Source of the DNA: a virus
Taxonomy: Duplodnaviria; Caudoviricetes
Length of the DNA stretch: 63,102 nt
IMG/VR virus record: IMGVR_UViG_3300031952_000016
Coordinates: 1-63,102 of that record
Reading direction: 5' to 3' (one strand)
In this document: in pieces, positions 51,554 through 54,973 of the stretch
Numbering within the stretch: position 1 is the stretch's first letter
How the letters are laid out: each line of letters begins with the position of its first letter
Translations under genes and position numbers: made by a program
The notes under the pieces: generated by a model
Told to the model about the DNA's origin: nothing
Database searches by the model: none
The model's input: the letters and a program-made list of their open reading frames with translations, nothing else

Positions 51554-51994
51554 ATGAAATCAGATAGAGATGACTACCTAAAATATTACAGGGTAATACG
51601 ACAGTTTATAAAAATTAAATACGAGATAACTCAGGCTGACTTAGATATGCTTTTGTTCTTGTATTCAGAGAAGTACTTCGGAAGGGATAAGTTTGATGAA
51701 TATACCAAACTGCTAGGATGGGATGTAGTGCGCTTTTTTAGACTCCAACAAGAAGGTTGGATTGTCAAATTTAGAAATCGAGTTGGTAAGAGAAAAGCTT
51801 TGTACAAACTTACCATAAAATCTGAACGTATGATTCAGTCGATATATAGAAAACTAAGTGGGGAAGAAATCCCCACTAGTTTATCCCAAAATAAAATGTT
51901 TTTAAAAAATGCATCATACCTAGATAAAGCGTATCGTGATATGATTATTCAGATGAATGAAGTTATAAGACAACAACGACATCTCTCTCAGTAA
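51554..51994 (+). CDS. MarR-like winged-helix regulator
   Basis: ITQADLDMLLFL...RLQQEGWI...LYKLTIK. Confidence 0.6.
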   Translation: MKSDRDDYLKYYRVIRQFIKIKYEITQADLDMLLFLYSEKYFGRDKFDEYTKLLGWDVVRFFRLQQEGWIVKFRNRVGKRKALYKLTIKSERMIQSIYRKLSGEEIPTSLSQNKMFLKNASYLDKAYRDMIIQMNEVIRQQRHLSQ

Positions 51995-52226
51995 TAATCG
52001 TGTACTGCTTTTCATCAATTAGCATTGTAAATCCGTGTGCCTTGTCATAGTAGATGTCATCATCTTTCTTTATGTTAGGCACATCTGTTCCTGCTTCAAT
52101 AACTAAACCACGTTTGTATCGCATTTGGTTTACATCTTCTCCCGATAGAATCAATCCTGACTCTGTCTTCAACTCTTCATCAACGGTCTTGATGACTATG
52201 TATTTTCCTATGGGCTTTAATGACAT
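51963..52226 (-). CDS. groES: co-chaperonin GroES
   Basis: LKPIGKYIVI, KTESGLIL mobile loop, GLVIEAG, ERDVVVV. Confidence 0.9.
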   Translation of the reverse strand: MSLKPIGKYIVIKTVDEELKTESGLILSGEDVNQMRYKRGLVIEAGTDVPNIKKDDDIYYDKAHGFTMLIDEKQYTIITERDVVVVL

Positions 52227-52897
52227 AATTTTTTTATTTTTAATTGTTTATTTAATATTTTACTGTTTACTTTTTTAGACCTTCCGTATAGGTTATTTGA
52301 TATTGCTGTCTCTAAACATCCTAATTTTTTTGCTGCTTCTCTTACAGAAGAAAAATTTTCAATAAATTCAGAAGTATAATAGTCATAACAAGAAATAGGA
52401 ACGGATGTTATTATTTTTGACTTATTTGACAATCTCATTTTAGCTTTAACTTGCTCAGGTATCTTTGTTCCTGTTCTTGCTTTGGCTATATTTTCTCTAT
52501 GCTCTTTAGATTTTATCTTTCCTTTATGAGATAAAGATATTTTATTTTTCCATTCTTCAGTTCTTATAACAGATTTTAAAGATTCTATTTTCTTTTTTAA
52601 AATGCTAAAAGAAACTGCTTCGACAGTAATTCCTCCTTTTGTTTGATTAATAAGTTGGCCATTTTTTAAATCTATTCTTCCGTATTTAGTAATAAGTTCT
52701 ATCTCTAACTCAAATGCTTGCTCTTGAGTTAATCCATCTTTATATATTTCAATTATATAACCATATTTACTTACTACTCTATTCCACCATTCAGGTCTTT
52801 GCTTACAATAGGCTCTTTTTAAATCCCCCATACCTACATAGAAAACAGAATTATCTGTTTTCTTTTTATGTAGATATACAACTTTGTTATTTTTCAT
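52217..52897 (-). mobile_element. free-standing homing endonuclease (GIY-YIG-like with NUMOD3/NUMOD1-like repeats)
   Basis: VYLH...FYVGMG..KRA, E..LI..YG, LINQTKGG; RTEEWKNKISLSHKG repeats; FSSVREAAKKLG. Confidence 0.8.
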
Positions 52898-52915
52898 TTA
52901 ACAAAAATAGTAATT

Positions 52916-52942
52916 TTATTTGTATTTCCCGATTGGTTTCAT
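52916..52942 (-). pseudogene. groES: relic of the original groES 5' end
   Basis: ATG AAA CCA ATC GGG AAA TAC AAA TAA = MKPIGKYK*, matching the GroES N-terminus. Confidence 0.75.
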
Positions 52943-52946
52943 ATCC

Positions 52947-54554
52947 TTACTCGTTTGATTGTTCGTAGCTTCTCGCCATTGTGATTATCGCATCTGTGCT
53001 TAGGATTGTTACCGCTACACTCACTGCGTTTTGCAATGCTGAACGGGTTACTTTCAACGGGTCTATTACTCCCATTTTTACCAAGTCTCCAAACTCTCTT
53101 GTTTTTAGATTGTACCCGTGACCCTGAGCTACACCATCTGAATAGATGTCTGATGCTCTTAGTCCTGCGTTAGCAAGTATCTGTAAGAACGGAGCCATAA
53201 GTGCTACGCTTAAAATATTTATTGCCGCATTGTACTCCTCACTCTTGTTATCGTCTAAATGTAACGCTGCACTCTCCTCAAGTAATGCTTTCCCTGCTCC
53301 GGGCACGATACCTTCCTCTAGTGCTGACCTTACCGCACATACCGCATCATCAACTCTATCAAATAACTCTTTCTGCTCTAGGTCTGTCTGACCTCCTACG
53401 AATATCACTCCGATACCTCCTGTAAGGGAAGCGATACGCTCTAAGATAAAGTCTTTCTCGTGTTTCTTAGTTGCGTTCTTATGCGCATCCCACAACTGAG
53501 ACACTCTTTCGTCAATTGCTTTTTGGTCTAACCTCAAGTCTGACTTGATGATAACAGTTTTGTCCTTGCTCACAATTATCTTAGCTGCGTGCCCTAGGTC
53601 TCCAAAGTTGATGATACTCAAATCATCTCCCGTTTTCTCGCTGAAGTAAGTCGCTCCAACGCTAATGGCAATGTCATACATCAACTCGTGTTGCTTGTAC
53701 CCAAAACTAGGTGGTGCAACTGCACATACCTTGATGTTCCCCTTTACAACATTTGCCGCCAAACTATTGATTAGGTTCTGACCACAAGGAGATATTATCA
53801 ATAACTTTTTACCCTCACTAACAATTGGCTTAAGCACGTTCTCAATCTGAAGGATATTAGTAATCTCCATATCAGCAACCAACACCATAACATCCTCAAA
53901 TATGCACTCATCTTTTTTCTGCTCGTTTATAAACATCGGACTCAAATACCCTCTGTCAAATTTCAACCCTAAAGTGGTCTCCGCATACGTCTCGTCAGTC
54001 TGACTTTTCTCCACCGTTACAATACCGGTCTTACCAACATCTTTGTACACCTCAGAGATTATCTTCCCTATCTCTCTATCGTTGTTTGCAGATATGCTCG
54101 CTACATCCACCAACATAGAGCTAGTAACTCTCTTGCTCTTTTTGCGCAACCTATCCACCACCTTGTCGCTTATCTCCACCATACTCCTTAAGACCTCAGT
54201 CCTGTTTAGATTTGGCGTAATATGCTCAAGTCCTCCCAATACCAACCCCTCTGTAAGCACAATAGCCGTAGTGGTCCCATCTCCTGCGGCAGTAGCGGTA
54301 CGCTCAGCAGCCTCCTTCATCATCTTAACCGCAAGGTTCTCCGAAGGGTCTAACAAGTCAATAGCCTTAGCCACTGTTACACCATCTTTAGTAACCGTGA
54401 TGCCGTGAGTGTGTGTAGGGCTCTCTATCAAGACCGGATTACCTCCCGGACCTAACGTAGCTTTTACAGCTTTTGACATCTTTACCACTCCATTTACTAA
54501 TTTTTTCCTTCCTGTGTCCCCAAAACACAAATCTTTAGGCGAATACTCTAGCAT
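52947..54554 (-). CDS. groEL: chaperonin GroEL
   Basis: TLGPGG, TKDGVTVA, AGDGTTTA, FDRGYLSP, EEGIVPG, GVIDPLKVTRSALQNA. Confidence 0.95.
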   Translation of the reverse strand: MLEYSPKDLCFGDTGRKKLVNGVVKMSKAVKATLGPGGNPVLIESPTHTHGITVTKDGVTVAKAIDLLDPSENLAVKMMKEAAERTATAAGDGTTTAIVLTEGLVLGGLEHITPNLNRTEVLRSMVEISDKVVDRLRKKSKRVTSSMLVDVASISANNDREIGKIISEVYKDVGKTGIVTVEKSQTDETYAETTLGLKFDRGYLSPMFINEQKKDECIFEDVMVLVADMEITNILQIENVLKPIVSEGKKLLIISPCGQNLINSLAANVVKGNIKVCAVAPPSFGYKQHELMYDIAISVGATYFSEKTGDDLSIINFGDLGHAAKIIVSKDKTVIIKSDLRLDQKAIDERVSQLWDAHKNATKKHEKDFILERIASLTGGIGVIFVGGQTDLEQKELFDRVDDAVCAVRSALEEGIVPGAGKALLEESAALHLDDNKSEEYNAAINILSVALMAPFLQILANAGLRASDIYSDGVAQGHGYNLKTREFGDLVKMGVIDPLKVTRSALQNAVSVAVTILSTDAIITMARSYEQSNE

Positions 54555-54580
54555 TTGATTTAATTTTTAATTGTTATATG

Positions 54581-54588
54581 CAAATATA
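54581..54588 (-). promoter_or_regulatory. Bacteroidota -7 promoter box for groEL
   Basis: TATATTTG on the - strand. Confidence 0.6.
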
Positions 54589-54668
54589 GTACAATAAATT
54601 ATATTTGATACCATACTTGATGGGAAATGCGAAGCAGAGATGGATTTTTATGTGTCGTTTATTGGGTT

Positions 54669-54748
54669 ATGTCGGTTTGTATGTCGGTTTTATGACGATT
54701 TATGACGAAAAATGTCGAGAAATGTCGGTTAATGTCGAAAAAATGTCG
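54669..54748 (+). repeat. eight phased ATGWCG direct repeats (iteron-like)
   Basis: Starts at 54669, 54681, 54692, 54702, 54712, 54722, 54732, 54743. Confidence 0.8.
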
Positions 54749-54973
54749 CAGGAAGTCCAGTAAACATTGAAAAAACGACAAAAATGCAATTTTATTTTCT
54801 CTACCTCTCTCTCAGAAAATATATACTCTTCTTCTTTTTTTTATTATTTCATTCTCTTCTTTTTTTCGACATTATCGACATTAAAAGAATAAAGTATTAA
54901 TAATCAAATAGTTAGAAAAATTGAGTCGTCGCAAAAACGTCGTAAAATATAACCGATTGTGTCGATTATAAGT

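Follow-up and report, generated by a model that had tools for sequence, protein, structure and literature searches.

The viral sequence IMGVR_UViG_3300031952_000016 (Duplodnaviria; Caudoviricetes), of which the whole stretch analysed, 63,102 nucleotides (nt), is called the window in what follows, carries a groES gene whose first codons are present twice, once as a short stub behind groEL and once at the working start of the gene. The 722 nt which separate the two copies of the K-P-I-G-K-Y codons are, on sequence comparison, very probably a mobile cassette that lies inside codons 1–8 of groES and has a free-standing gene for a GIY-YIG homing endonuclease as its core. All the features of this locus lie on the minus strand (Table 1). 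The groEL stop codon (TAA, 52949-52947) is followed after four bases (52946-52943) by a mini-open reading frame (mini-ORF), then, 6 nt further, by a TATTTTTG box and by the endonuclease gene, which is single-copy within the window. The working groES begins MSLKPIGKYIVIK (protein MSLKPIGKY) and runs across the endonuclease stop; its ATG lies inside the last endonuclease codons, a TTA codon occupies the position of the native ATG and GroES is longer by two residues. Between the stub and the working copy, the K-P-I-G codons read AAA/AAG, CCA/CCC, ATC/ATA and GGG/GGA, which differ at four of four third positions, and the next seven bases (AAA TAC A) are the same. A first-pass annotation of this DNA had already described the stub, the box, the ORF and its overlap with groES, and this description proved exact to the coordinate.

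Occupied, empty and scarred groES alleles

Presence and absence of the cassette at one and the same site have been found among close relatives (loci are designated here by L numbers). In the alignment of the occupied locus L088 with the empty locus L028, identity is 99.3% across 143 nt on the upstream side and 96.4% across 450 nt on the downstream side, and a single clean block of 722 nt distinguishes the two alleles, with the same 16-nt direct repeat, corresponding to groES codons 2–7, at either edge; the equivalent distance between the repeat copies in the window is also 722 nt. Similarly, the occupied locus L094 shares ~92% identity on both sides with its empty partners L074 and L073. In a groEL-based scan of IMG/VR, in which 128 of 135 candidate stretches were confirmed, 80 loci were kept (75–89% protein identity), with a groEL-to-groES distance extending from a 4-nt overlap to ~3.5 kilobases (kb). 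Fifteen of the 80 are empty, that is, with a groEL–groES gap of 15 nt or less, and all 15 read groEL stop, 0–11 nt, then M-(K/Q/R/T)-P-I-G-K-(Y/F) without any M-x-L extension (the printed sequence of L074 reads MTPIGKY), which is the arrangement that had been forecast for endonuclease-free relatives, with the native groES start right behind the groEL stop. One locus, L008, has the same endonuclease gene (91% protein identity). Seven (L002, L003, L009, L013, L022, L061 and L075) are scarred, groES starting with M-(S/A/G)-L-(K/Q)-PIGK and the endonuclease gene being absent. In the remaining 57, groES has its native start and small genes of various kinds are present.

The origin of these scars is illustrated by L013, the closest backbone to L008 (88% upstream, 93% downstream), in which the stub is missing and the endonuclease gene is reduced to its last ~35–40 nt, the MSL start being retained. 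A deletion of this type explains the seven M-x-L scars. In L075, groES encodes M-K-P-M-S-L-K-P-I-G-K-Y (~L075:2104-2140), with the first three stub codons fused in frame to a cassette-type start, and this sequence looks like the product of a deletion which removed the stub and the endonuclease gene. As a rule for annotation, an M-x-L extension on these GroES proteins would mark past occupancy.

After identical junctions had been collapsed, 16 stub-bearing configurations were distinguished (the window, L082-L086, L088, L089, L091-L094, L096, L097, L102 and L111). All 16 possess the groES-start stub, the same junction and a TAnnTTTG box located 4 nt before the endonuclease start. The stub comes after the groEL stop in the window, L084, L085, L088, L091, L094 and L102, after an HNH endonuclease gene in L086, L089 and L097, and after other genes in L082, L083, L092, L093, L096 and L111; in each configuration, it occupies the position of the native groES ATG of element-free relatives. 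Because 16 distinct configurations share this junction, with the stub at the native groES start position, the stub is not a chance resemblance. The first-pass annotation had rightly placed the element inside the groES 5′ end but had predicted the groEL/groES junction as its target; since the upstream neighbours vary while the position of the stub is constant, with HNH or other genes also preceding it, the target is the groES 5′ end. A stop/start overlap like that of the window is also present in L082, L084, L086, L087, L094, L096 and L097.

The 5′ codons of the stub track the recipient lineage, with Q in L088 (like the empty L028) and L097, T in L094 (like the empty L074), R in L091 and A in L085 and L102, whereas its 3′ bases and the junction remain cassette-type across lineages, which places the left recombination point inside the ~20-nt stub. 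Six further configurations have no stub. In L087 and L103 the endonuclease gene is 5′-truncated (as in all of L103-L105), in L090 and L114 it begins right after the groEL stop with an intact 5′ end, and L110 ends at a contig edge. In the sixth, represented by L106-L109, the GIY-YIG endonuclease is 55% identical, its TGA stop overlaps the native ATG of groES, and both stub and extension are lacking; this form looks like the usual intergenic arrangement and could possibly be the ancestor of the stub-bearing cassette.

The association with groES extends to the whole set of close homologues. Directly downstream of the 28 full- or near-full-length homologues with at least 55% identity, groES was found in every case, i.e., in 6/6 IMG/VR loci (obtained by a search with 15 closer sequences of the family, and including the L008 contig) and in 22/22 metagenome loci (L088-L109, full or near-full matches with 55–83% identity). 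Among 33 other metagenome loci, L110, L111 and L114 end at a contig edge but follow groEL or a stub, and the other 30 match, through the N-terminal domain, different endonucleases located elsewhere. Metagenome contig X4 (1669 nt) contains groES, the endonuclease gene and the stub at ~94% identity, followed by 500 nt of other sequence up to the groEL end, and contig X5 (907 nt) contains the endonuclease gene and the stub with 1 difference. In the Phage GenBank collection, a distant blastn search with 51900-54600 returned only MW202828 (65% over groEL), in which groES directly follows groEL without an endonuclease.

Comparison of the window with L008 indicates that the element is more alike than its flanks. 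Within the cassette, identity reaches 95.6% for the stub and box, 92.5% for the endonuclease gene and 87.8% for the first 90 nt of groES, versus 77.9% for groEL, 78.2% for the remaining 3′ two-thirds of groES and 77.8% for the downstream gene; upstream of the stub, the two sequences are unrelated. Likewise, 141 of 153 locus pairs are more alike in the endonuclease gene than in the groES 3′ part (mean identities 74.9 vs 66.4); these pairs are not phylogenetically independent, and groES is short. Between the window and L106 the relation is reversed (70.7 for the endonuclease vs 84.9 for the groES 3′ part). Both directions of incongruence fit an exchange of cassettes between backbones.

The encoded 226-aa (amino acid) protein matches phrog_314 of PHROGs, "homing endonuclease" (E 6.5e-19), and has 61 homologue clusters. 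Across an alignment of 26 homologues, Y8, Y20, G22, R28, E65 and N84 are invariant and form the GIY-YIG pattern; we take these residues to be the counterparts of the I-TevI catalytic residues. A profile of the 26 homologues matched a "GIY-YIG domain-containing protein" (E 3.5e-4) and the UvrC GIY-YIG domain (E 0.02) of the PDB, the signature residues aligning with the motif of both. In the AlphaFold model (mean predicted local distance difference test score, pLDDT, 79; both domains mostly >85; residues 1-80 at 83-94), VIA-align superposed residues 3-88 on the I-TevI catalytic domain (1ln0/1mk0; Z 8.9, root-mean-square deviation 2.5 Å over 81-83 residues) and the catalytic domain on that of UvrC (Z 7.1-7.5). 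Further along the chain, residues 147-226 superpose on the DNA-binding part of I-HmuI (residues 106-173; Z 9.1) and residues 160-225 on the I-TevI DNA-binding domain 1i3j (Z 5.5). Sequence identity to I-TevI is 17–18%. Pfam NUMOD1 was found at the C-terminus (E 2.9e-4) with 21.4 bits, under the 22.8 cut-off, and several homologues carry precomputed NUMOD1 and NUMOD3 annotations.

The family was settled by profile and fold because phmmer with the single protein against PDB sequences (0 matches at E ≤ 10), NCBIfam and the Pfam scan (no GIY-YIG model at E ≤ 0.01) gave no GIY-YIG assignment; Foldseek of the model against the PDB also gave no match at E ≤ 1e-3. An NCBIfam match to Tic20 was set aside as a chance hit. 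Collectively, profile and model data identify the protein as an intact, modular, I-TevI-like GIY-YIG homing endonuclease which is predicted to cleave DNA, and on this point the first-pass annotation, which had called the ORF a homing endonuclease, is borne out.

The replacement start and competing explanations

Codon statistics have been used to ask which of the two groES starts belongs to the cassette. The Lys codon AAG is present in 8/22 cassette or scar copies vs 5/72 other loci (Fisher p 0.002), and the Pro codon CCC in 7/22 vs 4/72 (Fisher p 0.003), with 0/15 among empty loci. In addition, the working copy has K at codon 2 where the stub has T, Q or R (L094, L097 and L091, respectively). 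Judged by these codons, the working groES start is cassette-borne, as expected if the element supplies a replacement groES N-terminus, which had been proposed from the window.

A route can be outlined by which such a cassette would move by recombination among related ~60-kb freshwater phages, most likely when an empty groES allele is cut by the endonuclease and the break is repaired. In a genome where another gene preceded groES, the empty allele would have been cut by an endonuclease encoded intergenically, just upstream of groES, as in L106. The right end of the break would have been extended by copying of the donor groES start, endonuclease gene and promoter region. Its left end, with the first seven codons of the recipient, would have been joined without homology, giving the stub. 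Since then, the stub would offer ~20 nt of left homology in any genome, independently of the hypervariable upstream genes. The break itself would lie near codon 7/8, at the left junction, and occupied alleles would be protected by the splitting of a contiguous site (ATG region and codons 7–8), not by wobble changes. Loss would proceed by untidy deletion leaving the M-x-L scar, and possibly also by scarless recombination between the repeats.

As regards protection, a property common to all occupied alleles is that neither copy has both native flanks. The native ATG before codon 2 has been lost in 12/12 working copies with a Tyr codon 7 and is kept in 4/5 of those with a Phe, Asn or His codon 7 (p 0.002), an association (12/12 vs 1/5 losing the native ATG) which rests on related loci. 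It hints at a two-part site, composed of the start region and codons 7–8, which could be disabled by changing either half. I-TevI recognizes a two-part site and cleaves about two helical turns from the insertion point, and the ~20 nt between the two junctions would fit a geometry of this kind. The CNNNG motif, a feature of I-TevI, was considered as a mark of the cut at the left junction and rejected: it occurs in the window native-type sequence and is absent from F-type lineages and from the L008 working copy.

Several points weigh against the mobile-cassette reading or its proposed route, among them the lack of independence already noted for the 153 pairs and for the codon-7 association. Among contigs of four DNA metagenome runs, none skips the cassette on a near-identical backbone, contigs being unable to show absence. 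Co-conversion beside the junction is only suggestive between L094 and L074 (8/45 vs 18/210 differences, p 0.098). Finally, inspection by eye indicates that both copies share their wobble states over codons 3–7 in L086, L088, L091 and L097, though the cassettes differ between genomes, and that codon 7 is TAC in both window copies and TAT in both L008 copies. This concordance is unfavourable because a single break followed by donor copying predicts a donor-type working copy. As a pattern of sequence, it suggests recipient-target duplication at insertion, conversion between the repeats, or scarless recombination creating empty alleles.

It is conceivable, if rather doubtful, that the groES-start repeats are the working ends of the element, either as a transposon-like target duplication of 16–19 base pairs or through the stub acting as a portable ~20-nt homology arm. 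Such ends would permit entry into groES behind any upstream neighbour and would make scarless excision possible. They would also account for the recipient wobble states in both copies (L086, L088, L091, L097), for the identical junction in 16 configurations and for the perfectly native near-isogenic empty alleles. The wobble differences would then stabilise the element against repeat-mediated loss.

A different role for the wobble differences had been proposed by the first-pass annotation, namely that synonymous recoding destroys the cut site of the endonuclease. In its strict form, the replacement 5′ end would have been recoded under selection, the wobble changes conferring endonuclease resistance on the occupied allele. 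The four differing wobble positions of the window, together with the preference of cassette copies for the otherwise rare AAG and CCC codons, agree with this proposal, as does the mean difference between stub and working copy over codons 2–5 (3.0; range 0–6, n = 15 loci), which exceeds that of random pairs of native starts from different lineages (2.22). However, differences of this size are about those between any two diverged lineages, and in L086 and L088 (2/15) the cassette persists with no difference at all over codons 2–5. By analogy only, polymorphisms of the replaced region in MobA/gene 60 left nicking unblocked on their own, according to bioRxiv 10.1101/2022.08.31.505936. Recoding for immunity thus appears unlikely and, as a general rule, is probably wrong.

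It could also be argued that the arrangement is old and vertically inherited, with the endonuclease as an inactive or domesticated passenger, and that its patchiness reflects repeated loss with no ongoing homing. Losses are indeed documented by the L013 deletion scar, the 7/80 scars and the 5′-truncated genes (L087, L103-L105), and endonuclease-gene and groES identities correlate (r 0.49). Against this explanation stand the contrast between cassette (92–96%) and backbone (78%) in the window and L008, the common direction of 141/153 pairs, the change of the stub 5′ part with the recipient lineage, the near-isogenic occupied/empty pair L088/L028 and the intactness of the gene with all its signature residues. 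Purely vertical descent is consequently given little credence here compared with a mobile cassette.

A functional role of the mini-ORF, as an upstream or leader ORF ensuring translational coupling after groEL or control of the endonuclease, is still less probable than vertical descent and we regard it as very improbable. Its first five to six codons are well conserved in most configurations and it always stops shortly before the endonuclease start. Nevertheless, its length and stop vary (5–14 codons, or read-through into another frame), the stub decays in place in L084, L085, L093 and L094, and it is absent from L090 and L114 though the 5′ end of the endonuclease gene is intact; moreover, it reads just like a native groES start. 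Between the stub and the gene lies the box. Such TAnnTTTG boxes are located 4–30 nt upstream of 8 of the 68 window ORFs of at least 80 aa, i.e., groEL, the endonuclease gene and six others, and we assume that TAnnTTTG is the −7 promoter element of Bacteroidota. With the box at a constant 4 nt from the start codon, the endonuclease message would be nearly leaderless. With the motif taken in this sense, the boxes, a G+C content of 34% and the occurrence in lake and sediment metagenomes suggest a Bacteroidota host.

As to a self-splicing intron whose removal would join the stub to the remaining groES, we consider it hardly credible: the final seven bases shared by the two copies would let a precise join restore the native reading frame, but the endonuclease ORF has just 44 nt of non-coding DNA before it and none after it, scanning 51800-53100 against Rfam at E ≤ 10 returned 9 chance-level matches (E ≥ 0.7) and no intron family, no ribozyme core was found flanking or enclosing the ORF, endonuclease and groES are separate ORFs, and the working copy has its own ATG, which is retained in scars after loss of the endonuclease gene. 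That the element is intron-less, as the first-pass annotation had it, agrees with these flanks and with the Rfam result.

Features of the locus and its surroundings

Table 1. Coordinates of the groEL–groES locus in the window, in 5′ to 3′ order of the minus strand.
Feature	Position	Strand	Basis or remark
groEL, 535 aa	52947..54554	-	ORF list; Pfam Cpn60_TCP1 E 4e-56; upstream neighbour of the site here
Stub of the original groES start, mini-ORF MKPIGKYK and stop	52916..52942	-	Homologous stubs and native starts of empty loci
Left copy of the 19-nt duplicated groES segment (codons 2-7 plus 1 nt)	52921..52939	-	
TATTTTTG box (TAnnTTTG type)	52902..52909	-	4 nt 5′ of the endonuclease ATG; putative promoter element, cassette-borne
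Endonuclease gene, free-standing GIY-YIG, 226 aa, intact	52217..52897	-	phrog_314, signature residues, PDB profile match
GIY-YIG catalytic domain, residues 3-88	52634..52891	-	VIA-align to I-TevI catalytic domain 1ln0/1mk0
C-terminal DNA-binding region, residues 147-226, NUMOD1/helix-turn-helix type	52220..52459	-	I-HmuI and 1i3j alignments
Overlap of the new groES start (ATG TCA TTA A) with the last endonuclease codons and TAA stop	52217..52226	-	10 nt
groES, 87 aa, with two-residue N-terminal extension (M-S-L)	51963..52226	-	Pfam Cpn10 E 1.5e-13, residues 3-86
Probable co-conversion tract, first ~90 nt of groES	52137..52226	-	Identity of the window vs L008
Right (working) copy of the duplicated segment, cassette-type AAG CCC codons	52199..52217	-	Codon statistics

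In L002-L081, the interval between groEL and groES (equivalent to 52226-52947 in the window) is a hypervariable accessory-gene slot, in which at least nine families of small genes recur, combined differently from locus to locus. In the 79 clustered loci (L001 excluded), these include a small membrane-like protein (24/79), two unknown families (23 and 15 loci), a UVR-motif protein (12/79; Pfam UVR E 3e-5, weak Acb2/Tad1 hairpin), a protein with a Tad2-like Thoeris anti-defence domain (9/79; E 1.8e-24), a crAss001_48-like protein (5/79) and a RyR-domain protein (3/79). Genes of a second endonuclease family, HNH (PF01844; E 2.5e-6 in L060, 1.1e-4 in L086), have their 3′ end immediately ahead of the native groES ATG in L031, L038, L041, L060 and L061. 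In L086, L089 and L097-L100, the HNH gene is located directly 5′ of the stub, which puts two endonuclease genes in tandem at one gene start.

On the other side of groES, a convergent 146-aa ORF (51554-51994, plus strand) overlaps the groES 3′ end by 32 nt, and a convergent overlap at this end is also present in L083-L087. This ORF matches phrog_17028 (E 3.5e-12), has a weak match to a transcriptional-regulator family, and its MW202828 counterpart is annotated "repressor protein". Upstream of the promoter-like box of groEL, about ten CGACAT/CGTCAT-centred repeats with a 10–12 nt period (54660-54760 and 54866-54947, minus strand) form an iteron-like array which could be an origin or a regulator-binding array.

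Comparison with known endonuclease-linked insertions

Free-standing homing endonuclease genes are usually intergenic and, to our knowledge, the few known to enter an ORF, such as T4 MobA and Aeh1 MobE, split their target. The groES cassette would represent a third solution, with entry at the very start of an essential-looking gene, the old start being discarded as a stub and a new one being supplied. Its empty, occupied, scarred and truncated alleles, with an apparently older intergenic form and near-isogenic pairs, make up a natural series, and thereby a testable system for the self-immunity of such elements and for the minimum homology required for homing. The series also bears on how homing endonuclease genes relate to a hypervariable accessory slot which holds a Tad2-like anti-defence candidate. 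In a literature search, with supplements outside its scope, neither an endonuclease within or next to a phage groES nor a 5′-end stub like this one was found described.

In the MobA/gene 60 element of T4 and its relatives, an HNH endonuclease is inserted in the gene of the topoisomerase large subunit (bioRxiv 10.1101/2022.08.31.505936; PMC2988022). This element encodes a homologue of the deleted target segment and adds N- and C-terminal extensions, and both independent insertions in several clades and "hit and run" scars have been described (bioRxiv 10.1101/2022.08.31.505936). The groES cassette has in common with it a free-standing endonuclease gene at one fixed place inside a conserved ORF, an element-encoded replacement of the displaced segment with an N-terminal extension of the downstream part, near-identical empty relatives and scars after loss. 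In contrast, the nuclease here is GIY-YIG and that of MobA HNH, what lies upstream is reduced to a dead 8-codon stub and does not form a second functional polypeptide, the displaced segment survives as a direct repeat instead of being deleted, and there is no translational bypass element. Insertion in the target ORF together with an encoded homologous replacement was thus found, whereas two reassembling polypeptides and a bypass were not, the 8-codon piece having variable stops and groES having no coding gap. The groES cassette works partly like the MobA/gene 60 element but is not a member of its kind.

The Seg proteins of T4 are encoded by free-standing GIY-YIG genes which spread by recombination with co-conversion of their flanks; these genes sit between genes, and their cleavage sites are farther from the insertion than those of intron-encoded enzymes (PMC2988022). 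The groES element resembles them in nuclease family, in modular build and in being associated with neither intron nor intein, but it interrupts its target ORF and duplicates the first codons of this ORF. Insertions which split nrdA (Aeh1 MobE) or a topoisomerase gene (T4 MobA) have been reviewed in the same source (PMC2988022). With I-TevI, encoded by the T4 td intron, the catalytic fold and the C-terminal DNA-binding module are shared; the groES endonuclease gene, however, lies outside any intron, and the low sequence identity given above separates the two proteins.

A similar exchange of gene ends is known from fungal mitochondria, in which endonuclease-linked end duplications affect atp6, cox2, cob and rps3, as in Allomyces macrogynus atp6 (PMC4019555, PMC6279837). 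There too, an inserted endonuclease ORF brings a replacement gene end and the displaced original stays as a fragment. The fungal cases concern 3′ ends (C-termini), often through in-frame fusions, with mostly LAGLIDADG or GIY-YIG enzymes, whereas the phage cassette concerns the 5′ end of a gene, with its start codon and N-terminus, through a stop/start overlap. Collectively, the closest analogues of the groES cassette are the T4 MobA/gene 60 element and the atp6/cox2 end duplications of fungal mitochondria.

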